Source of the DNA: Candidatus Odinarchaeota archaeon
Lineage (GTDB): Archaea; Asgardarchaeota; Odinarchaeia; Odinarchaeales; Odinarchaeaceae
Direction of reading: 5' to 3'
DNA: 32,000 bases
Assembly: GCA_016839265.1 (NCBI GenBank)
Contig: JAEOUO010000002.1
Coordinates: 120,001-152,000, forward strand
In this document: positions 12,753 to 25,119 of the stretch, piece by piece
Layout of the letters: each line of letters opens with the position of its first letter
Position numbering within the stretch: the stretch's first letter is position 1
The notes under the pieces: generated by a model
Database searches by the model: none
Seen by the model: only the letters and a program-made list of their open reading frames with translations
Told to the model about the DNA's origin: nothing
Made by a program: the position numbers and the translations under genes

Positions 12753-14930
12753 TTAAACTATTCTCTCTACTAGTTTTTCCCTAAACTTTAATAATTCATC
12801 TTCTAGCGATTTTTCGCCTGTATATTTTATTATCATTGTTAACGCGTTAAACATCCAATCCATATAATTTAATAGTTTTCTGAAATCCCCTGGTTCGAAA
12901 CCAGCCGGATGCTCCTCAGCTACGTTAGCTAAGTATTCTAACGCTAACCTGCTTTTAACACTCGAGTAAGGTAACTCCACTAAACTGTTTTCTATAATCG
13001 CTGTTAAACATTGAAGGAATCTTTCACTGTTATCGATTTTCTTATCTGTTATTATCTGAATCAACTTGTTTAAAAGTTCAGGTTGAATACTAGTATACGC
13101 GGATAGTTTCCCTTTATCTGTGATTTTTAAACTGTTTTCGTTTATACTTATGTAACTGTTAAAGGCGAGTTTTAAAAGCAGGCTATCCGGGTTTAAAGCT
13201 TTCAACACATTGTTATATGCTGTCTCTGATATTTTACCAGCTTCCGCTATTAGCATTAACGCAGCCAGATGCTTGCAAATTTTTCTTTCTTTAAATGCTT
13301 TAAACCTCCAATACTCGCAGTCACAGCTTATATAACCGTTTTCATTAACCTGGATTTTATGCTCTCTCATACTAGTCGGACTTATTACAATAGCTTCTAA
13401 TCTGTTTTTCTCGCATTTAATATTCTTTAACATGTTTAAACTCGTTTTCTCAGCGTTTAAGATAATTGTGTAATCAGCTTTCTCTTTTAAAAATTTTTTA
13501 ACTGTTTTAACTTGTAGAAGCTGTTTTAATCTTTCTTTCTCTTCAGGTGTGCTTTGACGGTAATATAATGATTTCTGAAAATGTTCTATTAACTTTTTCA
13601 CGTTAATATCCTGATATAACGTTATTAAATATAATAGCATGTATTCTATTTGATTGTTTTTTAAAAGTATGCTTTTCAAATACTCGTATCGGGGTAGAAG
13701 CTGCCCTTTAATATTTTTTTTAAAGAAATATTTCTCAACTCTCTCTTTTTCTAACTTGTTTTCAACTAGTATTATTCCGTAAGCTTCTCTATCATACTTA
13801 TAGTTTCCCGCTTTACCGAAAATATTGTGAACAATATTCGTATTTAATATTTCGCTCTCCTTTTTTTCACTGTTTTCAGCTCTCGTCTTATAATAAATGT
13901 TTTCGAAGATGATGACTCGTGGATGCATGTTCACTGCGGAGCTGATCTCCGGTGTTGAAACAATAATTTTCAATATTTTAGCGTTAAATAATTCTTCTAC
14001 TATTAATTTTTCAAGCGGGGATAAACCTGGAATATGGAAACCTATCCCCCGTTTAATATAATAACTTAAATGCTCTCTAGTGTAAGTGTTCTCCCCTTTC
14101 TCTCTGAGCGTATTAATTTTTATTTGAACAGTGTTTAACTGGCTTTCACTTATTAAATTTTTAAAATATTTCTCTAATTCACCACACAGTTTTAACACTT
14201 GATTTACGCTTTCTGTGAATACGAGAACCTGCCCGTTGGATTTAATAGTCTCCTCTATTATGTTTTTTAAAACATTATTATTCTTTTTAACTAATACACT
14301 GTAACGGACAGGTAGCATTGTTGTGAATGTCTGCGCTAACTCTGCGTTCAACCACTCAGAGACTTCGAAAGCGTTACCTATAATATCTGAGAGGTATAGG
14401 AACTGAGCGTTTTTAAATCGTTCATTTAACACGATGATGAGGTTTTCTAAAAGTCCCCCTTTCTCATGCTGGCCGAGTAACTGGAATTCATCTACTATAA
14501 TCACTGATATGTCTGTGAACCATTTATAATTCACTAATAACGCTTCATCTGTTTCTTTGAATGTTGCGATAATAATATTCGCGTCCGCTAATCTGCTCGG
14601 GTCTTTCTCAGCTAACCTTACAATATTTACTCCTAAACTTCCGTAAATTCGATTTAAATAAACATGTACTTCATCGGCTTGACTTCTTAAAGGAAGCAAT
14701 ATTAATGCTTTAGATTTAGGTTCTCTTAACGCCATAGCTAAAACAACTATATGACTTAACAGAGTTTTACCGGAGGAGGCTGGAGCGCATATGAAAATGT
14801 TTTTTCTCCTGAAGACTCCTTTTCTAATCGTTAACTCCTGTATCGGGGTTAGATTTTCAACACCTGTATCTAAAAGTCTTCTTATAATTCTCTGATCGAC
14901 TCCGGCTACTTCAAGGCTTTTCAACGTCAT
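12753..14930 (-). CDS. Ski2/Hel308-like SF2 helicase homologue with degenerate motifs III/VI and an internal SWIM zinc finger
   Basis: Q motif LTPIQ, APASSGKT, PLRSQA, DEFQ, GIGFHIPG, winged-helix-like ITDKGK, and CDC-x13-CKH. Confidence 0.8.
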   Translation of the reverse strand: MTLKSLEVAGVDQRIIRRLLDTGVENLTPIQELTIRKGVFRRKNIFICAPASSGKTLLSHIVVLAMALREPKSKALILLPLRSQADEVHVYLNRIYGSLGVNIVRLAEKDPSRLADANIIIATFKETDEALLVNYKWFTDISVIIVDEFQLLGQHEKGGLLENLIIVLNERFKNAQFLYLSDIIGNAFEVSEWLNAELAQTFTTMLPVRYSVLVKKNNNVLKNIIEETIKSNGQVLVFTESVNQVLKLCGELEKYFKNLISESQLNTVQIKINTLREKGENTYTREHLSYYIKRGIGFHIPGLSPLEKLIVEELFNAKILKIIVSTPEISSAVNMHPRVIIFENIYYKTRAENSEKKESEILNTNIVHNIFGKAGNYKYDREAYGIILVENKLEKERVEKYFFKKNIKGQLLPRYEYLKSILLKNNQIEYMLLYLITLYQDINVKKLIEHFQKSLYYRQSTPEEKERLKQLLQVKTVKKFLKEKADYTIILNAEKTSLNMLKNIKCEKNRLEAIVISPTSMREHKIQVNENGYISCDCEYWRFKAFKERKICKHLAALMLIAEAGKISETAYNNVLKALNPDSLLLKLAFNSYISINENSLKITDKGKLSAYTSIQPELLNKLIQIITDKKIDNSERFLQCLTAIIENSLVELPYSSVKSRLALEYLANVAEEHPAGFEPGDFRKLLNYMDWMFNALTMIIKYTGEKSLEDELLKFREKLVERIV

Positions 14931-15136: not shown

Positions 15137-15979
15137 ATGTGTTCTCATAATAAATCGGATACATCCGGTAATGTTGAAAAATATTTGAAGTTGATTCTGA
15201 AAATTTTTAAAAATAGACTCGGATTAACCCCGAATTCGATTATTCTATTCGGATCCGCTGCTAAAGGCGGTTTAACTAGTAGAATTAGCGATGTTGATTT
15301 TCTAATTGTTTTAGATGACCGGGTTGCCTCGTCAGCTATACGTGCAGCCGTATCTTTTATGTTTACGCTTCAAAAATATTTTTTCAAATCTGATGATTCT
15401 AGTTCACTATCACGTTTACTGTATTTTTTCGAAGCAGGCACAGGTATGTTTAAATCTTTTTTCATATGTTTTGAACGTGATCTCTTATCAACATGTTTTC
15501 ACAGAATTTTCGATGTGAACAGATTTTTATCCTGGTTTATGGTTCCCAGTAAACTTGTTTTAAACTCTATTTTCTCTCACAGTAGGGTTGTATATGGTAA
15601 AAACTATGATTTTAAAAATTTTATAAGAGAAACCACTTTTTTTCAAATCGTTAAATCTTTTATTCTATGCAGTTTCTTATACTTGTTTTTCATTATAGTG
15701 AACTGTTTTAAACCTGTTCGAAGATATTTATATGAATCAGTTAAATGGTCGCTGCTTAACTGTCATTTTTATTTAACCGGTCGAAGTGTTAAAGTTAAAG
15801 ATACCGTATCTTTTTTCAAAAAAATTTTAGATAACCCGGTTTTAGAAAAAATCGCATCTTATAACATTGACTTATCTGATTTTAATGTTAAAGACTACTT
15901 TAAACTTTTTAACTTAATTTTTAACCTTCATTTTAAGGCTCCACGTTTATTCTATAAGAAATATTCTAAACGGGTTTAA
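15137..15979 (+). CDS. Pol-beta-like nucleotidyltransferase domain protein with helical C-terminal region
   Basis: ILFGSAAKGG..SDVDFLIV matches the GS-x-DxD nucleotidyltransferase motif. Confidence 0.75.
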   Translation: MCSHNKSDTSGNVEKYLKLILKIFKNRLGLTPNSIILFGSAAKGGLTSRISDVDFLIVLDDRVASSAIRAAVSFMFTLQKYFFKSDDSSSLSRLLYFFEAGTGMFKSFFICFERDLLSTCFHRIFDVNRFLSWFMVPSKLVLNSIFSHSRVVYGKNYDFKNFIRETTFFQIVKSFILCSFLYLFFIIVNCFKPVRRYLYESVKWSLLNCHFYLTGRSVKVKDTVSFFKKILDNPVLEKIASYNIDLSDFNVKDYFKLFNLIFNLHFKAPRLFYKKYSKRV

Positions 15980-16198
15980 CTTATTATTTAAAGCTCTTCT
16001 TTTTCAAACCCGGTGCTGAATTCTTTAAAATCGTCTTTTTTTAAAAAGTTAAAGAACGCTTCTGCGATTTAACTTCTACCCGTGTTTTCACGTCATGTGA
16101 ATAAACTTTTCTTATTTCACCGCTGCCTATTTTAAATAATTTTTATAATTGTTTAAACATATTATTTTTTATAAATATTATTTAACGGTGGTTTAGTT

Positions 16199-16957
16199 TT
16201 GTTCGAAGCTGATTTTCAACCTTTAGGGATAGAGGGGCTTGACGCTGCTTTAGGTGGTGGTGTTCTAACCAACGGCGTGATTCTTATATCGTTTGATCCG
16301 GGTTCAGATGAATGGGTTTTCAGTTCAGAGATTATTAGAAACAGTTTATTTAAAGGAGAGTATGTGATTCAAATGGATTTCGATCACTCTCCTGAATATT
16401 CCTTGAACAGTATTATCGGTTTAGGTGTGGAATCTGATATTTTAAAAGATAAGCTTAGAGCAGAATATAAGACTGGTAAACTGCGTTTCATCGACTGTTT
16501 CACCGCTGAATCCTCTCAGGATAAAATTAAACCAACACGTTTCACCGTGATTTTAGATAACCCTTACAATCTTTCAAAACTTTTATTCACTATGAAACAG
16601 GTGCGTGAATCTATTCCTTCAGGTTTCAAAGTTAAATGGTTTTTCTCTAATTTAACTTCTCTAAGCATTAACCTTCCTGTTCAGGATGTGATCCGTTTCT
16701 GTAGATCTGCTTTTCGAATTCATAAACAGTTTAACGATCAAGCGGTTTACTATGTTAACAGAGGCGCCCACTCCTCTGAATTTCTATCTATCATATATCA
16801 GCTGGTGGACGCTGTGGTGGAGTTGAGAACACGTGAAGTGAATAATAGGGTGCTGCGTTTTCTCCGCGTTGTTAAAAACCAATTTAAAGATCACATTTCA
16901 TCTGATTTAACTTATAAAGTTGATAAGGGTAAAATTATAATAAGCTTATTAAAATGA
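16199..16957 (+). CDS. KaiC/RAD55-like RecA-fold protein with inactivated Walker A
   Basis: GIEGLDAALGGG, RFIDCF, YQLVDAVVEL and RFLRVVKN match KaiC-like domains, but the P-loop reads FDPGSDEW. TTG start after GGTGGT; stop overlaps the next start (ATGA). Confidence 0.8.
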   Translation: MFEADFQPLGIEGLDAALGGGVLTNGVILISFDPGSDEWVFSSEIIRNSLFKGEYVIQMDFDHSPEYSLNSIIGLGVESDILKDKLRAEYKTGKLRFIDCFTAESSQDKIKPTRFTVILDNPYNLSKLLFTMKQVRESIPSGFKVKWFFSNLTSLSINLPVQDVIRFCRSAFRIHKQFNDQAVYYVNRGAHSSEFLSIIYQLVDAVVELRTREVNNRVLRFLRVVKNQFKDHISSDLTYKVDKGKIIISLLK

Positions 16958-18588
16958 ATATGGCGGGTTTTATGAGCGCTGATCTTAATAAACTTGAATT
17001 AAACTTGAAGCAGGCGGCTGAATTTATTCAAACAATGCTTTCTAAAGCATCCTGTATTTTACAGGAATCCTCTGAAACCTTAGAGTTCACTAAACTATTA
17101 TTGAATGAGGTTGAAAAACTGAAATTAGAGTTGAAACTTGGGATTGAGTCAAGCGGCGGTATTAAAGGCTTATTCGGCGCTAAAAAGAAATACGCTAAGC
17201 TGTTATCTGATAAATTTTCTAAGCTAGAAAATAATATGGTTGAAGCTCAGAATAAAATCTATAATTCCTATTTAGACTATCTTTCTAGTTTTGAAGATCA
17301 ACTTAAAAATATTGATCGCGATTACACGCTTGTGAAAGATGAGACAGCTAAGCGTAAAATGAACTGGAGTAGTCTAATTAAAATAAAGTTTGCTTTTGAA
17401 GAATTAAAATCAGAGCAATCTAATCTAATAAATTATGTTGATAAACTCAGGTTTTCAAAAACTTTTAATATTGTTGAACTCGGTGCTGTAACTGATAATA
17501 TTATAAGCTGGCGTGAACGCTTTGAAGAATTAAAAAAGAGTTTAGATGATATTCAGCGTAGAATCGCTTTTCGAAATATTGTTTTCGCTAAGATTATGGA
17601 TATTCAAGGCGGTTTAGACGGTCACATCACCGACTTCTTTAAAAGTATAGGGGTTGACTTCAATAATTTTCTAGATAGACTGGCTTCTAAAACAGTTGCT
17701 GAGGAGACCGAGGAAATATTTTTAGAGGCGACTCTTCAGTTAATGGATCCTATCAGTGAATGTTTTAAGAATCTGAATAATATTATCTTTCTACTCCACG
17801 ATGCTGGTGTTCCTTTAAACGTGGTGCTAGAGCAGGCTGATGTTAAAAACTCTTTAACTCTTTTCAAAATAATATTAGAGAAGTTTAAAATAGGTTTTAA
17901 AGAATACGTTGAACAAGAGTTTTTATTCACTGATAAACTTAAACAAATCTGCTTGGAGATTCATCCTATAATCAAAAATATTCTCTCATATTTAGAGAGG
18001 CTTGGGGACTCTTATAAAAATTTCAGAAACCGAGTGTTAGAGATACTCTCCTCCTGGCTTATTAATTTTAAACAGAAAGGCGGCTGGGACGCTGTTAAAA
18101 AACTGTTTATTACATTAGAGAATTTTCTTTTAAACCATTACCCTGCTATAAATGAATGTATTCGAAACAGGCTTAGAGGCGTTAACCCTAATGCGATTCG
18201 CGGAGCTGCATTATTTCAAAACTGTATTCCCACTGAATACGTTAAAGAACAGTTTATTTATGATACGATTCTGCCGATTATTCTAGAAGGGGAGGGTGTT
18301 CATGTCTTATTGAATGTTCTTCAAGCCTACGGTGAGCGTGGATGGATTAAACGAACAGAGGTTAAAAATATCTCCGACGAGTATATTGAAAACTATATTA
18401 AAGCGAATTCATCTATTAAACTTATGAACGTTGACGGTTACGAGTTTTTATTTTCACCTGAGATTCTAGTTAAAAAAATAAAGAATATTTCAAAAGAATC
18501 TTTATATAATTACTTTAATAAATATTTATCGAACAGCGAGCTTTGCAGAAAAATAGCTGAAGAAATATTCAAACAATTTTCACCTTAA
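16954..18588 (+). CDS. Uncharacterised 544-aa coiled-coil/helical protein
   Basis: Long ORF coupled by ATGA overlap to the upstream gene; heptad-rich Leu/Glu/Lys N-terminal half; no transmembrane segment seen. Confidence 0.8.
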   Translation: MNMAGFMSADLNKLELNLKQAAEFIQTMLSKASCILQESSETLEFTKLLLNEVEKLKLELKLGIESSGGIKGLFGAKKKYAKLLSDKFSKLENNMVEAQNKIYNSYLDYLSSFEDQLKNIDRDYTLVKDETAKRKMNWSSLIKIKFAFEELKSEQSNLINYVDKLRFSKTFNIVELGAVTDNIISWRERFEELKKSLDDIQRRIAFRNIVFAKIMDIQGGLDGHITDFFKSIGVDFNNFLDRLASKTVAEETEEIFLEATLQLMDPISECFKNLNNIIFLLHDAGVPLNVVLEQADVKNSLTLFKIILEKFKIGFKEYVEQEFLFTDKLKQICLEIHPIIKNILSYLERLGDSYKNFRNRVLEILSSWLINFKQKGGWDAVKKLFITLENFLLNHYPAINECIRNRLRGVNPNAIRGAALFQNCIPTEYVKEQFIYDTILPIILEGEGVHVLLNVLQAYGERGWIKRTEVKNISDEYIENYIKANSSIKLMNVDGYEFLFSPEILVKKIKNISKESLYNYFNKYLSNSELCRKIAEEIFKQFSP

Positions 18589-18592
18589 CATG

Positions 18593-18605
18593 GAAAGTTT
18601 AAAAA
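18593..18605 (+). promoter_or_regulatory. Candidate BRE/TATA promoter for a leaderless tubulin transcript
   Basis: GAAAG followed by TTTAAAAA (18598-18605), ending 23 nt before ATG 18629; no GGTG/GGAGG-type SD before the ATG. Confidence 0.5.
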
Positions 18606-18628
18606 CCGTAATTAGGATTTGATTTAAT

Positions 18629-19906
18629 ATGCCTGGAAGAGAAATATTAGTTTTACATGTAGGCCAAGGCGGTAATCAGATAGGTTATAACTTCTGGAAA
18701 ACTATCTGTGAAGAACATAATATTGATATTCATAATACTCAGAAGAAACCTGTTGAAGAGAATAAAGTCGACTATAAATCTGTTTTCCTAGTGGAAGCCC
18801 CTGACGGTTTTCACCCTCGCGCTCTTTTTATCGATTTAGAGCCTTTAGCTGTAGAGTTTCTTGTAAAAGAGACGAAACTAGGATCGTTTTTCTCAGAAGA
18901 TCTGATGGTTTTAAGCTATTCAGGTGCGCATAATGTTTGGTCTATCGGCTATCAGACTGGTAAGAAGCTTATTCCTGTAATTTTAGAGAAGATTAGGGAT
19001 ACTATGCCGGAGACGCTTCAAGGCTTTCTAATTATTCATACGCTTGGCGGTGGAACTGGAAGCGGTTTCGGTTCTCTTATAACTGAAACTCTTAAAAAAG
19101 AATTCCCTGATAAAGGTGTTCTCAACTTTAGTATTCTCCCCTCTGAAGTTAACGATATTACTTTAGCTCCTTATAATACGGTTTTAAGCTTAAACCATTT
19201 ATCTAAATTCTCGGATCTGGTGGTTTTATTCGATAACACAGCGCTTATAAGAATTGTTAAAGACCAGTTAAATTATCCGGTGATTAAACAATTCTCAGAT
19301 CTTAATTTTCTTATAGGTCGTGTGATGGCTTCTATAACCGCTTCTCTAAGGTTCCCGGGGCCTCTTAACATGGATTTAATGGAGATGGCTCATAATCTTG
19401 TAGCTTTACCTGAAACAAAATTCATCATACCATCCGTAGCACCTTTAACAAAAGAGGAGAGTGAGATGTCAACTGAACTAGACTTGGTTGAAAGATGCTT
19501 CGACCCAACTCACTACATGGTGAACTGCAGCGGGCAAGGTAAAACTATATCCTCAGTTTTAATGTTCCGCGGGAATATCGCGATCGAGAACGCATTCGCC
19601 ATTATGAGCGATATTAAATCCAACGTACCCTTCGCTCCAGGAGTTCACCCTGATCTAGGTTTAAAATACGGTATCTGCGAGAGCGCTCCAGTTGAATTCG
19701 ATAAAGAGATCACGCTTTTAACGAATAACACGATCATCGCCGAGCCTTTTAACCGGATTCTGGAGAGATTCGACTCGCTGTTCAACCGTGACTGGTATAC
19801 TAGCCACTACGTGAATGCGGGTACATCTAAATCTAATTTAAAAGAGGCCCGTGACAACTTTGAGCGAATTATTAAAATATACAAGGAGATCGAAGGCTCA
19901 CAGTGA
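18629..19906 (+). CDS. Eukaryote-like tubulin (OdinTubulin-type Asgard tubulin)
   Basis: REILVLHVGQGGNQIG, PRALFIDLEP, GAHNVWSIGY, tubulin signature GGGTGSG, PYNTVLS, DNTAL, LRFPGPLNMDL. These are tubulin rather than FtsZ motifs. Confidence 0.97.
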   Translation: MPGREILVLHVGQGGNQIGYNFWKTICEEHNIDIHNTQKKPVEENKVDYKSVFLVEAPDGFHPRALFIDLEPLAVEFLVKETKLGSFFSEDLMVLSYSGAHNVWSIGYQTGKKLIPVILEKIRDTMPETLQGFLIIHTLGGGTGSGFGSLITETLKKEFPDKGVLNFSILPSEVNDITLAPYNTVLSLNHLSKFSDLVVLFDNTALIRIVKDQLNYPVIKQFSDLNFLIGRVMASITASLRFPGPLNMDLMEMAHNLVALPETKFIIPSVAPLTKEESEMSTELDLVERCFDPTHYMVNCSGQGKTISSVLMFRGNIAIENAFAIMSDIKSNVPFAPGVHPDLGLKYGICESAPVEFDKEITLLTNNTIIAEPFNRILERFDSLFNRDWYTSHYVNAGTSKSNLKEARDNFERIIKIYKEIEGSQ

Positions 19907-19916
19907 AGAAAATAAG

Positions 19917-21365
19917 ATGATTTCTATGAGTGATGAGTTTATTGAAGAGTTCACCGCCACATTTGACGCGTTAATTCAGAAAATCACCTCTACACTAGAC
20001 CAGTTAATAATCGAAATGAACACTATTCTCAGCGGATTCGATAAGCAGACAGTGGACGTTAACCGGTTAAAACTACTCTTAGAAAACACCTCTAAAACAT
20101 CTAGTTTAAACGACTCCGAGTTCACTCTTCTAGTAGAATTCTCAAACAAGTTAAACGAGCTATTAAAAATTCACGCCGACGATCTCAGTGAACTCTACAA
20201 CTCCTATCAGAAACTTTTAGACACAGCTAATATTCTCAAAGAAAACTTTAAATCAGCTTTAACCTCTGTGCAAAAAAACTTCAATCTCATATTAAAAGAT
20301 TGGAGGAGTGAGCGCAAAAAACTATTTGAAGAAAAAACTTCTCTAAGCGAAGAGAAAACCCGTCTACTAGGCGAAAACAAAACTTTAAAAGAGAGGCTTG
20401 AAGAGCTTCAAACCGCTTATAACTCTTTAAATAAACAATTCAACGAATTGCAACACGACTATAATATAAGCGTGGATAAACTGAACTCTCTTCAACAATC
20501 TCATCTTCAACTTGAAAGAGACTTCAAAAACCTGCAAACCAGTTTCGAAACTATTATGAGCGGATTCAAAAACGCTTATAGTTTTTTTAAGAACCTCCCT
20601 GAGGCAAATCTAAAACTTCCCTCACATCTTTTACTAAACTCTATTAGAGAACCGCTAAACGTCGATCAATTGAATTCTTTTTTAAAAAATCTGGAGTCAC
20701 TTATCGAACTAGACCAGTCTCTTATAAAATCTCACGTTCACAGTAAATCTTTCACCACAGCTTTAACAAATAACTCTTACACGGAGATTTTAAACCAGGC
20801 TTTCAAAAACATTTTGGACGTTGAAGAAAGAGAAAGAAATGAAATAGAGCGTAGAATCTGCGAAGTGGAAGCGTTAATAAACGACGCTCAACTATCCCGC
20901 TACATTCACACCGAGCTTTTCAAACCTTTCACTGAAACCGCTCGAAACCTACTAGACTCTAATCAAAGACTTCTAGGAGAAGCCGCTATGAAACTCATCG
21001 AGCAAGTGAAACTTAAATTCGAGGACGTGGAGTTGCGGAAGACTTTAATAAGGAGAACAGGCATCCGCGGCTTAAACCTAGGTGACTGCGTGGTTGAAAG
21101 CTGTGAGTTGCCCTTAGACGTCGAGCGCGTGGATTTGTCCTTAAATAATTTATTGGAATCCTTGAACACGGAGTTATTCGAGAAACGCCGTGAGCTCTCT
21201 ACTTTCTTCTTCGAGTCATGGCGTGATACTGCTTTAAAAATAGTATCTGAAAATAAACTCGTCTCCTATATTATTTTATTGATTGTTAAAAAACTTGTGG
21301 AGAAAGCTAATCTGAAAGACTCTGATTTACGTAAGCTTTTTAAGAAGAGTCTATTTCTAGTTTGA
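19917..21365 (+). CDS. Uncharacterised long coiled-coil protein (~482 aa)
   Basis: About 11 consecutive heptads (EEKTSLS EEKTRLL GENKTLK ERLEELQ TAYNSLN KQFNELQ ...). Start most simply ATG 19917 or 19926, just after the tubulin stop, rather than GTG 19851. Confidence 0.85.
   Translation: MISMSDEFIEEFTATFDALIQKITSTLDQLIIEMNTILSGFDKQTVDVNRLKLLLENTSKTSSLNDSEFTLLVEFSNKLNELLKIHADDLSELYNSYQKLLDTANILKENFKSALTSVQKNFNLILKDWRSERKKLFEEKTSLSEEKTRLLGENKTLKERLEELQTAYNSLNKQFNELQHDYNISVDKLNSLQQSHLQLERDFKNLQTSFETIMSGFKNAYSFFKNLPEANLKLPSHLLLNSIREPLNVDQLNSFLKNLESLIELDQSLIKSHVHSKSFTTALTNNSYTEILNQAFKNILDVEERERNEIERRICEVEALINDAQLSRYIHTELFKPFTETARNLLDSNQRLLGEAAMKLIEQVKLKFEDVELRKTLIRRTGIRGLNLGDCVVESCELPLDVERVDLSLNNLLESLNTELFEKRRELSTFFFESWRDTALKIVSENKLVSYIILLIVKKLVEKANLKDSDLRKLFKKSLFLV
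20328..20390 (+). repeat. Three degenerate 21-bp tandem units encoding heptads
   Basis: GAAGAAAAAACTTCTCTAAGC / GAAGAGAAAACCCGTCTACTA / GGCGAAAACAAAACTTTAAAA. Confidence 0.5.
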
Positions 21366-21405: not shown

Positions 21406-22011
21406 TTGGCAACTAATAAAATCACAGAGAAAAAGATTCCTGTGCGCGGGGTTAACTGCGCTAAATGTAGATTAGACATTGAGAATATTCTAGGCAAGGT
21501 TACAGGTGTAGAAGACGCTAAAATGGATTATATGAGCGGCGTAGTTTCCGTTAAATACGATTACACTCGTGTAGATTTACCTGAAATAGAGAAAATACTC
21601 GAAAACTTAGGTTATAATGTCGCTTACAAAGACTATGAAAGCGGTTTAACCAAGCTTAAAGGATTATTTAAAAAGAAGAAATCTTTGAGAAAAATCGACG
21701 ATCACACCTTTCCAGGTCTCGTTTTAGAAACACTGAAACCAGTTATCCTACTAGTTTACAAAGGTGACTGCGATGAATGCGAGCGTCTAGAAGCTGCTTT
21801 AACTAAATTAGCTGTAGAATTCAAAGATAGAGTCTACTTCTATAAAGCTGACTGCAATCTATCCTCTATTTGCAGCCGATATAATATCAATCAAACACCT
21901 GTAATATTACTCATTCAAAACGGAGTTCTAAAGCAATCTCTACCCCCATCCGCGTTAGATGAAGAAATCAGAAAACATGTTATCGATGTACTGAAATCCA
22001 CTTCACTTTAA
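21406..22011 (+). CDS. HMA (CopZ-like) domain fused to a thioredoxin-fold domain
   Basis: GVNCAKC metal-binding loop in a ~70-aa HMA fold; C-terminal CDEC, FYKADC, YNINQTPVILL (thioredoxin pattern). TTG start after AGGTG. Confidence 0.85.
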   Translation: MATNKITEKKIPVRGVNCAKCRLDIENILGKVTGVEDAKMDYMSGVVSVKYDYTRVDLPEIEKILENLGYNVAYKDYESGLTKLKGLFKKKKSLRKIDDHTFPGLVLETLKPVILLVYKGDCDECERLEAALTKLAVEFKDRVYFYKADCNLSSICSRYNINQTPVILLIQNGVLKQSLPPSALDEEIRKHVIDVLKSTSL

Positions 22012-22215
22012 ATATAAAATCTCGATAAGGCTCATATTATTCGCTGCGAAAAACGTTTAAATATAAAATTTTACGCTAAGCTGACGATATTTAATATTAC
22101 CTTGAATAATTTATGAGCTGCTGCTAAAATTTTCACTTTAGTGCACGATGGCTTAAACTAGATGCTGTATATCTGGTGAAATTCTTCTCTCTAACAGTTA
22201 AAGCTTCCGCCAGTC

Positions 22216-22740
22216 TTATGTTTTATCTTTTTTAAGTTTCTCTAATTCGTTTCGAGCTGTTTTCAACAATTCTATGGCTGTTTCGAGTCTTTCCTCCATT
22301 ACTTGATGATTGTTCTCAATGTATTCTATTAACTCCGAGGCGGTTTTAGCGTTTTCAGACTGCTTGGCTTGTTTAATCAACTGGTTTATTCGCTCACATA
22401 TTCGGAGGGCTTCATTAAGCTTGGCTTCCGATTCTTTTAAAAATAGGTTTTTCATCTCCGCTGGTAGTTCTCGATCGCAAAGCGCTTTTATAGAGATCAT
22501 ATGCTCGGCGGCTTCTTTAAACGCTTTACGGCGGAGAGCGTTTATTTCCTGGTATAATTGTAGGAGGTCGCTGAGTTTTCTATCATGTTCGATAAACCTG
22601 TTGAGCATGCGTTCTATGATTTGGATTTTCTCCTCGTTGCTCTCCGCTTCCTTCTCCTGGGGGTCGCTGAAGCCTAATCTTAGAAAACTATACATTAAAT
22701 TCACGTATTCGCAGGCTAGTCTTCTCTCCTCCTCTCCCAT
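22216..22740 (-). CDS. Hypothetical charged alpha-helical protein (~174 aa)
   Basis: E/K/R/L-rich helical ORF; ATG 22740 has GGTGG 5 nt upstream (the ORF-track GTG 22749 lies within that SD). Confidence 0.75.
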   Translation of the reverse strand: MGEEERRLACEYVNLMYSFLRLGFSDPQEKEAESNEEKIQIIERMLNRFIEHDRKLSDLLQLYQEINALRRKAFKEAAEHMISIKALCDRELPAEMKNLFLKESEAKLNEALRICERINQLIKQAKQSENAKTASELIEYIENNHQVMEERLETAIELLKTARNELEKLKKDKT

Positions 22741-22993
22741 GAAAGCCACCGTAACAATTTATGTAGCAGTACTATAATATAAGTGAATAAAGAATATAAG
22801 AATTACCGGCTATATTAAACATCTTACTTGTAGTTTATTGTCGGATATTGTAACCACTGTTATACATTGGTTCCGCTTGTAAGCTGTCTCTTATTAAATC
22901 TGGCTAAACTGGTATAGCTATTATTGTTTTCTATGAGGGTTTTTTAATAATGGTGGTGGTCTGCTCTGCGTCTTTTAGTTAACTTTATATTTC

Positions 22994-23006
22994 ATAACAT
23001 TGTTAT
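22994..23006. promoter_or_regulatory. Perfect palindrome ATAACA-T-TGTTAT, candidate operator for copA
   Basis: Lies between a TATA-like CTTTATATTT (22983-22992) and the copA ATG (23014). Confidence 0.4.
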
Positions 23007-23013
23007 ACTATTC

Positions 23014-25119
23014 ATGGTTCGAGACCCTGTCTGCGGCATGGAAGTAGACCCTGAGAAAACACCTTTCAAAACACAGGTTAACGGTAGAACATACTATTTT
23101 TGCAGTGAAACATGCCTTCGCATCTTCGAATCACCTGAAAGAGAGCTTAAATCAATGCGTAAAAGAATGAGTGTAGCGATAACCGGCGCTGTATTTTTAG
23201 CTGTTCTCAGAGCTGCAGCTTTTCTAGTTTTAGCTGCTGGTGTGACTTTTTTCACATGGGCGCCTATTAGCTTACTCCCATGGTTAAACTACGGGGTTAT
23301 TTTATTTATTATTACAACGCCGATTCAGTTTATCGGCGGCTGGACCTTCTATAAGGGAGCGGTTAAAGCGATAAAAAACCGTGTCGCGAACATGGATTTA
23401 CTGATAACTGTCGGAACTTTAACCGCTTACATATACAGTTCAATCGTTATATTCGCTCCCGGAATTCTCCCGTTCACTCCTAAAGATGTTTATTTTGATG
23501 TAGCAGCTATTATCATCGCTTTTGTGCTGTTAGGTAAATACTTAGAGGAGTCTATTAAAAAACGCAGCTCAGCTACTATACGTAAATTAATGGATTTATC
23601 TCCTACCATGGCCAGGGTTATTCGAAACGGTGAAGAGAAAACTATTCCCGCTTCTAATATTCAACTAAATGAGTTAATTATTGTATCGCCTGGTGAGAAA
23701 ATACCGGCTGACGGGGTGATAGTTGAAGGCTCCTCGTCTATAGATGAGAAGATGATCACCGGGGAGAGTGTGCCTGTTGATAAAACAGTCGGTGACCCTG
23801 TGATCGGGGCTACAGTTAACTTGACTAGTTTTCTTAAAATTAAAGCAACTAAGGTAGGGGCTGAAACAACTTTAAACCAGATTATTCGTATGGTTGAAGA
23901 AGCTCAAGCCTCTACAGCTCCTATTCAGAGGATAGCTGATAAGGTTGCAGCTAGATTTGTTCCAAGCGTTATTTTAGCAGCTGTCATCTCCCTTCTCACC
24001 TGGACCTTTCTCTTAGACAATTATAGTTTAGGGTTACTGTCTTTTATCGCTGTTATGATCATCGCCTGCCCGTGTGCTTTAGGAATCGCTACACCCACCG
24101 CTCTAATAGTGGGTGTAGGTAAAGGAGCTGAAACCGGTATTCTAATTCGTGGCGCTGAATACTTGGAGGCTGCGCAAAGCCTTACAACAATTGTTTTCGA
24201 TAAAACCGGTACTTTAACTAAAGGTGAACCTTCAGTTACTGATGTAATAGTTTTTAATAGTTCTGAAAAAGATATTCTCTTATTAGCTACTATAGCTGAG
24301 AAACACTCTCAGCATCCTTTATCTAAAGCTGTTCACCGGAAGGCATCAGAATATTTTAAAAATATCCCTGACCCGGTTGAATTCAAATATATTCCAGGAG
24401 CAGGTAACATGGCGGTTTACGATTCTAAGAAGATTTTAAGCGGTGGTCGACGACTGCTATCCGAGTTTAATATTTTAATCTCTTCAGATGTTGAACAGGC
24501 TTTAACTAGACTTGAAGAGCAGGGTAAAACTGTTTCAATTATATGCGTAGATGACGCTGTTAAAGGTTTAATCGCGTTCTCTGATGAGCTTAAACCTTAC
24601 GCTTTAGAAGCTGTAAACCAGCTTAAACAAATAGGTTTAGAGACATATATTTTAAGCGGGGATAATGAGCGTACTGTTAGATATATCGCTTCTAAACTCG
24701 GGGTTGACGGTTATAAAGCGAATATTCCTCCTTGGGAGAAAGCTAATGTTATTAAAAAACTTCAGTCTGAAGGTAAAATTGTAGCGATGGTCGGTGACGG
24801 AATAAATGATGCTCCTTCACTAGCTCAAGCGAATATCGGTATCGCTTTAGGAAGCGGCTCTGATATCGCTAAGGAAACCGGAGGCATTATTCTAGTTAAA
24901 GATGATCTGAGAGATGTTGTTAAAGCTATTAAGTTAAGTAGGAAAACGATGAAAACGATTAAACAGAATCTTTTCTGGGCGTTCATCTATAATGTTATCG
25001 GTATACCTGTAGCTGCGTTAGGTTTATTGAACCCGATTTTCGCTGCTGCAGTTATGTCTTTCAGTTCTCTCTTCGTGGTAAGTAACTCTGCTAGACTTAA
25101 AAAATATCGTTTAGAATAA
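23014..25119 (+). CDS. copA: Cu(I)-translocating P1B-type ATPase with N-terminal YHS/TRASH domain
   Basis: DPVCGM..YYFCS (YHS), TGES, CPC, DKTGT, HP, GDGIND, YN and MSFSS (P1B-1 copper signature). Confidence 0.94.

Follow-up and report, generated by a model that had tools for sequence, protein, structure and literature searches.

A conserved tubulin gene cassette of Odinarchaeia and its two candidate tubulin-associated proteins

Introduction

Does an archaeal tubulin come with dedicated protein partners encoded beside it? The question is raised by positions 16,199 to 21,365 of a 32,000-nucleotide stretch of contig JAEOUO010000002.1 (G000:C2:120001-152000; hereafter the window, meaning that whole stretch), which belongs to an Odinarchaeum-type genome of 1.35 Mb. 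In this interval a eukaryote-like tubulin gene is flanked by genes for two orphan proteins, CC1 upstream and CC2 downstream, and the trio is preceded by a gene for a KaiC-like pseudo-ATPase. A first-pass annotation of the window had proposed that all three neighbours are dedicated tubulin accessory factors, had described them as lacking any characterisation, and had suggested neighbourhood comparison and fold searches as checks. The comparison of Odinarchaeia loci presented here shows that CC1, tubulin and CC2 form a cassette conserved in every sampled lineage, and that the KaiC-like gene lies outside its core.

Odin tubulin is basal in the eukaryote-like tubulin clade (PMC13371889), and the paper describing the OdinTubulin structure makes no mention of neighbouring genes (Akil et al. 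2022, PMC8956254). The gene context in strain LCB_4 was analysed with HHpred by Santana-Molina et al. 2023 (PMC9871819), who described an upstream protein with a Prc1-like N-terminus and a Snf8-like C-terminus and a downstream coiled-coil protein, annotated as Smc and weakly related to ATG16. These authors proposed that OdinTubulin acts together with the 'Prc1-Snf8' protein and stated that the two flanking genes have no homologues anywhere. A 2026 paper (PMC13394414) includes gene maps of tubulin neighbourhoods, and its text states that this context is not conserved from one taxonomic group to another. Partner genes have therefore already been proposed in print; the Odinarchaeia-wide conservation, the conserved motifs and the placing of the KaiC-like gene outside the core, all reported below, were not found in the literature searched, nor was a description of any archaeal tubulin-associated protein. 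The earlier statement that these partners are uncharacterised holds for experiments and fails for description, since the flanking genes already appear in PMC9871819.

Results

The tubulin locus

The core of the locus consists of three genes on the forward strand, within which two short conserved elements can be delimited:

16954..18588, + strand: CC1, an orphan all-helical protein of 544 amino acids (aa), defined by its open reading frame (ORF), an AlphaFold2 model and synteny
17158..17190, + strand: basic glycine-rich loop of CC1, residues 69-79, G-[IL]-[KR]-G-x-x-G-x-x-K-K, from alignment
18629..19906, + strand: Odinarchaeal eukaryote-like tubulin, 425 aa, with the Pfam Tubulin and Tubulin_C domains
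19917..21365, + strand: CC2, an orphan protein of 482 aa, defined by its ORF, an AlphaFold2 model and alignments
21321..21362, + strand: last 14 residues of CC2, S-[DE]-L-[RK]-K-L-F-x-K-x-L-x-L-[IV], from alignment across lineages

Together with the KaiC-like gene these ORFs all lie on the + strand, and the first-pass description of four co-oriented genes is exact: the KaiC-like and CC1 genes overlap by 4 nucleotides (nt), a gap of 40 nt separates CC1 from tubulin, and one of 10 nt separates tubulin from CC2. The longest possible CC2 ORF begins at GTG 19851, and the alignment of orthologues favours ATG 19917 or a second ATG at 19926. The next gene on the same strand, an HMA-thioredoxin fusion at 21406, also follows CC2 by just 40 nt, and the 3' boundary of the cassette is therefore not set by spacing alone, but by comparison between lineages.

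The tubulin itself matches PF00091 at 159.2 bits (cut-off 33) and PF03953 (Tubulin_C) at 52.7 bits (cut-off 26.6), carries the nucleotide-binding signature GGGTGSG at residues 140-146, and is ~95% identical to the crystallised OdinTubulin (PDB 7EVB) across residues 1-425. The link to OdinTubulin drawn in the first-pass annotation is accordingly one of close relationship and not of identical sequence. Tubulin homologues occur in eight of the 400 Asgard genomes that we searched, namely six Odinarchaeia, one Lokiarchaeial and one Heimdallarchaeial genome. Tubulin is thus present in six of the seven Odinarchaeia genomes of the set, and the locus of the seventh (G300) is broken by a contig end that falls inside CC1, directly after a Pol-beta-type nucleotidyltransferase (NTase) gene.

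Conservation of the cassette across Odinarchaeia

Four Odinarchaeia lineages could be compared across the locus, and their gene orders are as follows:

Window's own genus (G301-G303): Hel308-like helicase (opposite strand), NTase, KaiC-like, CC1, tubulin, CC2, HMA-thioredoxin, CopA
Logan contig L022 (CC1 44% identical): order as in the window's genus
Second GTDB family, referred to below as the second genus (G298, G299; tubulin 71-73% identical): two lineage-specific genes, NTase, CC1, tubulin, CC2, convergent ThiF
Fourth lineage (L055-L058): Zip, two ParA/ferredoxin genes, cation efflux, NTase, CC1, tubulin, CC2, aconitase

The order CC1–tubulin–CC2 is kept in 4/4 of these lineages, with a CC1-tubulin gap of 6-84 nt and a tubulin-CC2 gap of -4 to 29 nt, and in one case with overlapping stop and start codons within the triad. 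Two further contigs (L059, L080) end before tubulin and show upstream the same arrangement as the window's clade. Because the arrangement recurs in independent lineages, it is not due to chance. Across lineages the syntenic unit is NTase–CC1–tubulin–CC2, around which the genes further out have been rearranged: upstream of the NTase lies a Hel308-like helicase in the window's clade, a helical protein in the second genus and a cation-efflux gene in the fourth lineage, while the downstream flank is occupied by HMA-thioredoxin/CopA in the window and its relatives, by convergent ThiF in the second genus and by aconitase in the fourth lineage. The cassette of the second GTDB family lacks the KaiC-like gene as well as HMA-thioredoxin/CopA, and that of the fourth lineage likewise lacks the KaiC-like gene. 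The neighbourhood comparison thereby divides the three proposed partners, with CC1 and CC2 found beside tubulin in every lineage and the KaiC-like gene in one clade only.

Our phylogenetic tree places the Odin tubulins in a single clade with 100/99 support, the window tubulin among them. Three lines make up this clade: in one of them L022 groups with the window's genus (99/100 support), and the second genus and the fourth lineage form the other two.

Distribution and sequence features of CC1 and CC2

Profile searches recovered full-length CC1 from six of the seven Odinarchaeia genomes, the remaining one (G300) retaining the CC1 N-terminus at its contig end, and gave no full-length match in any of the 393 remaining Asgard genomes. 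When run against 1.84 billion representative proteins, the CC1 profile yielded six matches with E < 1e-10, four full-length and two fragmentary, of which four could be traced to Odinarchaeia-type contexts. Weak matches in another Asgard genus were rejected, as about 50 residues aligned to what reads as a HEAT-repeat protein. Full-length CC2 was likewise found in six of the seven genomes, with only a weak coiled-coil match in the seventh; its matches in the other 393 genomes were limited to the coiled-coil segment at approximately positions 100-230, and a search of 5.8 billion proteins returned six, labelled 'hypothetical protein' or carrying no name. Full-length CC1 and CC2 were thus found only in Odinarchaeia, and their distribution matches that of Odin tubulin exactly; neither was found without tubulin in any collection searched.

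Neither protein matches a Pfam or NCBIfam family above cut-off, with Pfam scanned at E-values up to 1, and the matches of CC1 and CC2 to ATG17_like, ATG16, FPP, Smc and similar entries were set aside as coiled-coil noise. The CC1 profile found nothing relevant among PDB sequences, and residues 410-544 of CC1 gave no usable match in a language-model atlas search. A paralogous origin of CC1 and CC2 was considered and rejected (hhalign probability 23% over 74 coiled-coil columns).

Between lineages CC1 and CC2 are 24-32% identical, and their C-terminal halves nonetheless carry invariant motifs. Across the four lineages the invariant elements of CC1 are the basic Gly-rich loop at residues 69-79, a GERGWIK motif and a Y-x-Y-F-x-K-Y motif; within the loop, which is modelled with low confidence and whose surroundings (residues 64-84) carry a net charge of +4, G69, K78 and K79 never vary. 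The C-terminal domain of CC2 contains the invariant motifs LIRRTGIR and RY-HTE-F-P, and its 14-residue tail is conserved in all lineages with a hydrophobic moment of 0.43-0.65 and a net charge of +2 to +3. All four genes are under purifying selection, the ratio of nonsynonymous to synonymous substitution rates (dN/dS) being lowest for tubulin (0.03-0.04), intermediate for the KaiC-like gene (0.12-0.13) and highest for CC1 and CC2 (0.16-0.20).

Predicted structures and earlier fold assignments

AlphaFold2 models CC1 with a mean predicted local distance difference test score (pLDDT) of 90.3 and a predicted template modelling score of 0.73, as three-helix bundles followed by a small C-terminal alpha/beta domain. 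The succession of elements in this domain (helix, strand, helix, two strands) may be winged-helix-like. Its isoelectric point of 5.9 and net charge of -1 show that it is not basic, which argues against DNA binding. CC2 (pLDDT 77.7) is modelled as a long antiparallel helical hairpin (residues 4-60 and 66-225) leading into a helical C-terminal domain, and its tail, with pLDDT < 50, as flexible. Fold searches with full-length CC1 (Foldseek against PDB, VIA, AlphaFold DB clusters, ESM Atlas) returned generic helical bundles only, including designed proteins, vinculin/catenin bundles and EzrA at meaningless root-mean-square deviation, and those with full-length CC2 (VIA wide, AlphaFold DB clusters) returned coiled-coil hairpins only. 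The fold searches proposed earlier thus leave both proteins with no known fold beyond generic helical bundles. A complex prediction for tubulin with CC1 residues 230-544 and CC2 residues 232-482, based on 7-row alignments and run without controls, scored 0.40, 0.01 and 0.07 (median 0.07), values that speak neither for nor against binding.

The published assignments of CC1 to Prc1 and Snf8 are not reproduced by our searches. An EAP30 (PF04157) family search of the seven Odinarchaeia genomes recovered the true ESCRT-II genes (e.g. G000:C1:959264) and not CC1, and direct Pfam scans at E-values up to 1 gave no EAP30 match to CC1. Aligned by hhalign with an Odinarchaeial Vps22 profile, full-length CC1 reached a probability of 0.2% (E 0.27) with only the short segments GERGWIKR and KGWVT in register; among its Foldseek rows the ESCRT-II chain 3cuq_A appeared insignificantly (E 0.77). 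No PRC1 chain was returned by fold or sequence searches with full-length CC1. The ATG16 match reported for the downstream protein we regard as generic coiled coil.

The KaiC-like pseudo-ATPase and the upstream nucleotidyltransferase

Upstream of the triad the window contains the following features:

15137..15979, + strand: Pol-beta-type NTase, 280 aa, with the Pfam NTP_transf_2 domain and a GS...DxD motif
15980..16198, + strand: AT-rich intergenic region of 219 nt, read from sequence
16199..16957, + strand: KaiC/RAD55-family RecA-fold pseudo-ATPase (the KaiC-like protein), 252 aa, TTG start, with the Pfam KaiC domain
16292..16315, + strand: degenerate Walker A of the KaiC-like protein, FDPGSDEW for GxxGxGKT, from alignment with PDB KaiC chains

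The KaiC-like protein matches PF06745 at 43.1 bits (cut-off 26.6) over residues 9-248, and its orthologues carry the source annotation RAD55/KaiC-family ATPase. At the P-loop, where KaiC chains have G(C/T)GKT, it has PGSDEW, which is kept in all five orthologues, and at the Walker B position, where paralogues have VVDS, it has WFFSN, so that the acidic residue is lost, a substitution likewise conserved in the orthologues. The earlier description of this protein as a dead ATPase agrees with the alignments, in which Walker A and Walker B are both degenerate.

Orthologues of the KaiC-like protein are 69-84% identical, falling to 58-62% in two further metagenomic lineages. Adjacency of the gene to the tubulin cassette is limited to the window's genus and L022, which form one clade; of the three deep lineages, the other two have a cassette that lacks it. 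Its relatives in the second genus are only 25-28% identical and are reciprocal best hits of the window gene at an E-value of only ~1e-9; they have a degenerate P-loop of their own, PAGSGW, and share the motif FDHSP. There the gene lies directly downstream of the topoisomerase VI genes Top6B-Top6A on the same strand (L065 8215-11888, G299:C96), and the window genome has no comparable gene after its own Top6BA pair (L071, G000:C1:146500-156500). The simplest reading of these arrangements would be a relocation of the KaiC-like gene to the tubulin locus in a single clade. The gene lies outside the core and is at most a lineage-specific add-on; since the cassettes of the second genus and the fourth lineage lack it, the tubulin cassette works without it. 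The first-pass view of the protein as a dedicated member of the module is therefore not supported. As a separate observation on topoisomerase VI genes, the window genome contains a second Top6A/Spo11-like gene of 320 aa (L070 4972-5934; G000:C1, ~567477-568307), 34% identical to the Top6A of the second genus, with no Top6B match within the 9 kb fetched around it.

The NTase, which the first-pass annotation did not mention, is the fourth syntenic gene: it adjoins CC1 or the KaiC-like gene in every Odinarchaeia lineage. It matches NTP_transf_2 at 35 bits (cut-off 21), with F38-G39-S40, D52 and D54 invariant and an acidic residue conserved near position 114. Of the 400 Asgard genomes, at least ~150 encode a full-length member of the family (~E 1e-48 to 1e-70), mostly as a single match; most of these genomes have no tubulin, and the neighbours of the gene there are unrelated. 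It is a general Asgard gene that is merely syntenic with the cassette and not tubulin-specific, and its candidacy as a tubulin-modifying enzyme was downgraded for this widespread occurrence in tubulin-less Asgard archaea. The protein has a strongly hydrophobic segment (Kyte-Doolittle 19-residue mean of 2.17 at residues 171-189), and in two Lokiarchaeial genomes a gene of the family overlaps a PAP2 phosphatase gene (NTase loci L060-L064). It is a conserved Asgard enzyme, possibly membrane-associated.

In the 219 nt between the NTase and KaiC-like genes, T-runs follow the NTase stop codon; the region also contains TATA-like boxes and, 6 nt ahead of the TTG start, the Shine-Dalgarno-like motif GGTGG. 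As read from the sequence, this region is the probable promoter of a KaiC-like/CC1/tubulin/CC2 unit, and because of the length of the region, its T-runs and its TATA-like boxes, the NTase of the window genome is probably a separate transcription unit. CC1, tubulin and CC2 are very probably co-transcribed.

Surrounding genes and source of the DNA

Divergent from the NTase lies a Hel308-like helicase of 725 aa (window 12753-14930, - strand), which is conserved in the window's clade and has a weak SWIM zinc-finger match at residues 534-560. On the other side, window positions 21406-25119 hold a fusion of HMA (CopZ-like) and thioredoxin domains followed by a YHS-domain CopA P-type ATPase, a copper-handling pair whose position directly downstream of CC2 is confined to the window's clade. 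Two lineage-specific genes come before the cassette in the second genus (L016 12492-14723, L017 13210-15297); one encodes a helical protein of 203-224 aa, whose weak Pfam matches to SesA and GCP_N_terminal (E 0.0085) stay below threshold, and the other a protein of 428 aa with a possible C-terminal winged helix. In a Lokiarchaeum-type genome (G138; L021 3404-10555) an AtubC-type tubulin gene is divergent to an archaellum/type IV pilus-like cluster with two flagellin-like genes, a KaiC/ArlH-like ATPase, T2SSE and T2SSF.

Sequencing runs that contain 93-100% of the sampled words of 16199-21365 are labelled as oil-field metagenomes, and parts of this interval are also present in two hydrocarbon metagenome runs. 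This habitat label differs from that of LCB_4, which comes from a Yellowstone hot spring.

Discussion

The conserved gene order presented here provides a framework for asking how an archaeal tubulin may be organised by proteins encoded next to it. The cassette is real and restricted to Odinarchaeia; its function, including any physical binding and every role of CC1 and CC2, we infer. Our preferred reading is that of an Odinarchaeia-specific, vertically inherited tubulin cassette with a core of CC1, tubulin and CC2, in which CC1 and CC2 are dedicated tubulin-associated proteins, and to this reading we assign a probability of roughly 0.55. The case for partners is a reasonable one, built on adjacency, tight spacing and a matching distribution within one order. 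Of the three dedicated partners originally proposed, CC1 and CC2 are retained by their conserved order, their spacing and their never being found without tubulin, and the KaiC-like protein falls outside the core.

Several observations weigh against this reading. All lineages with the cassette belong to one order, so that adjacency may partly reflect shared descent, and the NTase is equally syntenic and yet not tubulin-specific, from which it follows that adjacency within one order is no proof of function. CC1 and CC2 also evolve much faster than tubulin, with 24-32% identity between families compared with 71-73%. Lokiarchaeial and Heimdallarchaeial tubulin loci contain no detectable CC1 or CC2. 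The hydrophobic moment of the CC2 tail, moreover, is unremarkable within a protein that is already helical.

These points lead directly to the rival account in which synteny reflects descent only, CC1 and CC2 being Odinarchaeia-specific structural or coiled-coil proteins unrelated to tubulin that have stayed in place because small, streamlined genomes undergo little rearrangement. The NTase, syntenic in all lineages while its family has unrelated neighbours elsewhere in Asgard archaea, speaks for it, as do the single-order origin of all the evidence for the cassette and the wider synteny (helicase, HMA-thioredoxin, CopA, ThiF, aconitase) that persists among closer lineages. In the second genus and the fourth lineage, however, the outer flanks have been reshuffled and the triad has remained intact, with gaps of at most 84 nt and one stop/start overlap, and the phyletic distribution of CC1 and CC2 is that of Odin tubulin exactly; we consider descent alone a rather unlikely explanation. 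The original four-gene proposal, with the dead KaiC-like ATPase as a dedicated regulator or scaffold of tubulin alongside CC1 and CC2, draws on the tight linkage of that gene to CC1 in the window's clade (from a 4-nt overlap to a 43-nt gap), on its being more conserved than CC1 and CC2 in both identity and dN/dS, and on the retention of the degenerate P-loop itself. It appears improbable given that the gene is missing from the cassette in the second genus and the fourth lineage, and that its reciprocal best hits in the second genus, whose P-loop is degenerate too, sit after Top6B-Top6A, at which position the window genome has no such gene.

A function in DNA segregation of the TubZRC kind was also weighed. 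Here the winged-helix-like domain of CC1 would bind a centromere-like site, tubulin filaments would move DNA, and CC2 would modulate the filaments as TubY does. The modelled secondary structure of the CC1 C-terminus is compatible with a winged helix, and by general knowledge of TubY the layout of CC2, a coiled coil with a basic tail, is TubY-like. Unlike typical DNA-binding winged helices, however, the CC1 domain is acidic to neutral, no TubR or TubY homology is detected in Pfam or PDB, the cassette is chromosomal and single-copy, and no repeat array was noticed upstream, though none was looked for. We regard this function as very improbable.

Returning to the cassette with CC1 and CC2 as tubulin-associated proteins, the sequence features and models suggest a possible division of labour. 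CC2 would be a rod-shaped and probably dimeric spacer whose conserved C-terminal domain engages tubulin or CC1 and whose basic amphipathic tail tethers the assembly to the membrane; judged from its conserved sequence, this tail is a plausible candidate for a membrane-targeting helix or a docking peptide. CC1 would be an adaptor or bundler built of helical bundles, with a winged-helix-like end that binds protein, and the KaiC-like pseudo-ATPase would have been added to the cassette in a single clade, probably by relocation. More speculatively, CC1 and CC2 could be the first archaeal microtubule-associated proteins (MAPs), with CC1 acting as a PRC1-like cross-linker whose winged-helix end links tubulin to ESCRT-type or other membrane machinery and CC2 as a coiled-coil tether of tubulin rings or tubules via its amphipathic helix, together forming a tubulin-based apparatus for membrane shaping or division that predates eukaryotic MAPs. 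This last scenario is a long shot.

Odinarchaeia are uncultured, and the strongest candidates for archaeal tubulin partners are CC1 and CC2, concrete, expressible proteins for which the polymerisation assays already established for OdinTubulin are at hand. Should they act on tubulin, they would reveal the way in which an Asgard cell anchors or organises a proto-tubulin, and whether MAP-like regulation is older than eukaryotes. The present comparison also corrects two earlier points, in that the neighbours of Odin tubulin are not unique to one genome and that the KaiC-like gene is out of the core.

Comparison with known systems places these conclusions in context. The closest reference is OdinTubulin of Candidatus Odinarchaeum yellowstonii LCB_4, whose closed genome is included in our comparison (G303): the window tubulin, at ~95% identity over 425 residues, falls into the same Odin clade, and it comes from another Odinarchaeum species. 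The flanking genes described in PMC9871819 are the same two as CC1 and CC2 (orthologues P0002 and P0013 in LCB_4); they were called specific to one genome there and are conserved in four lineages here. The KaiC-like protein can be set beside archaeal single-domain proteins of the KaiC/RAD55/ArlH type (PH0284, PDB 2DR3), with which it shares the Pfam KaiC domain and weak matches to PH0284 and ArlH/FlaH, and from which it differs in having lost the lysine and threonine of Walker A as well as the aspartate of Walker B.

Type III partition systems place a tubulin-superfamily GTPase, TubZ, beside small adaptor and modulator genes, TubR and TubY. CC2 resembles TubY in its coiled coil and basic tail, a likeness drawn from general knowledge of TubY only; there is no sequence or fold match, the Odin cassette is chromosomal and single-copy, and the winged-helix-like domain of CC1 is not basic. 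In Prosthecobacter, BtubA, BtubB and BtubC bring tubulin genes and a dedicated accessory gene together in one cluster (PMC9871819). The Odin cassette shares with this operon the co-oriented clustering of tubulin with accessory genes, and differs in having a single tubulin where Prosthecobacter has two, and two flanking partners where Prosthecobacter has one; neither CC1 nor CC2 has a TPR domain or other BtubC homology by Pfam. What marks an accessory gene in clusters of the BtubABC and TubZRC kind is that it is co-oriented with the tubulin gene, adjacent and conserved, a combination that the KaiC-like gene does not show and that CC1 and CC2 both do.

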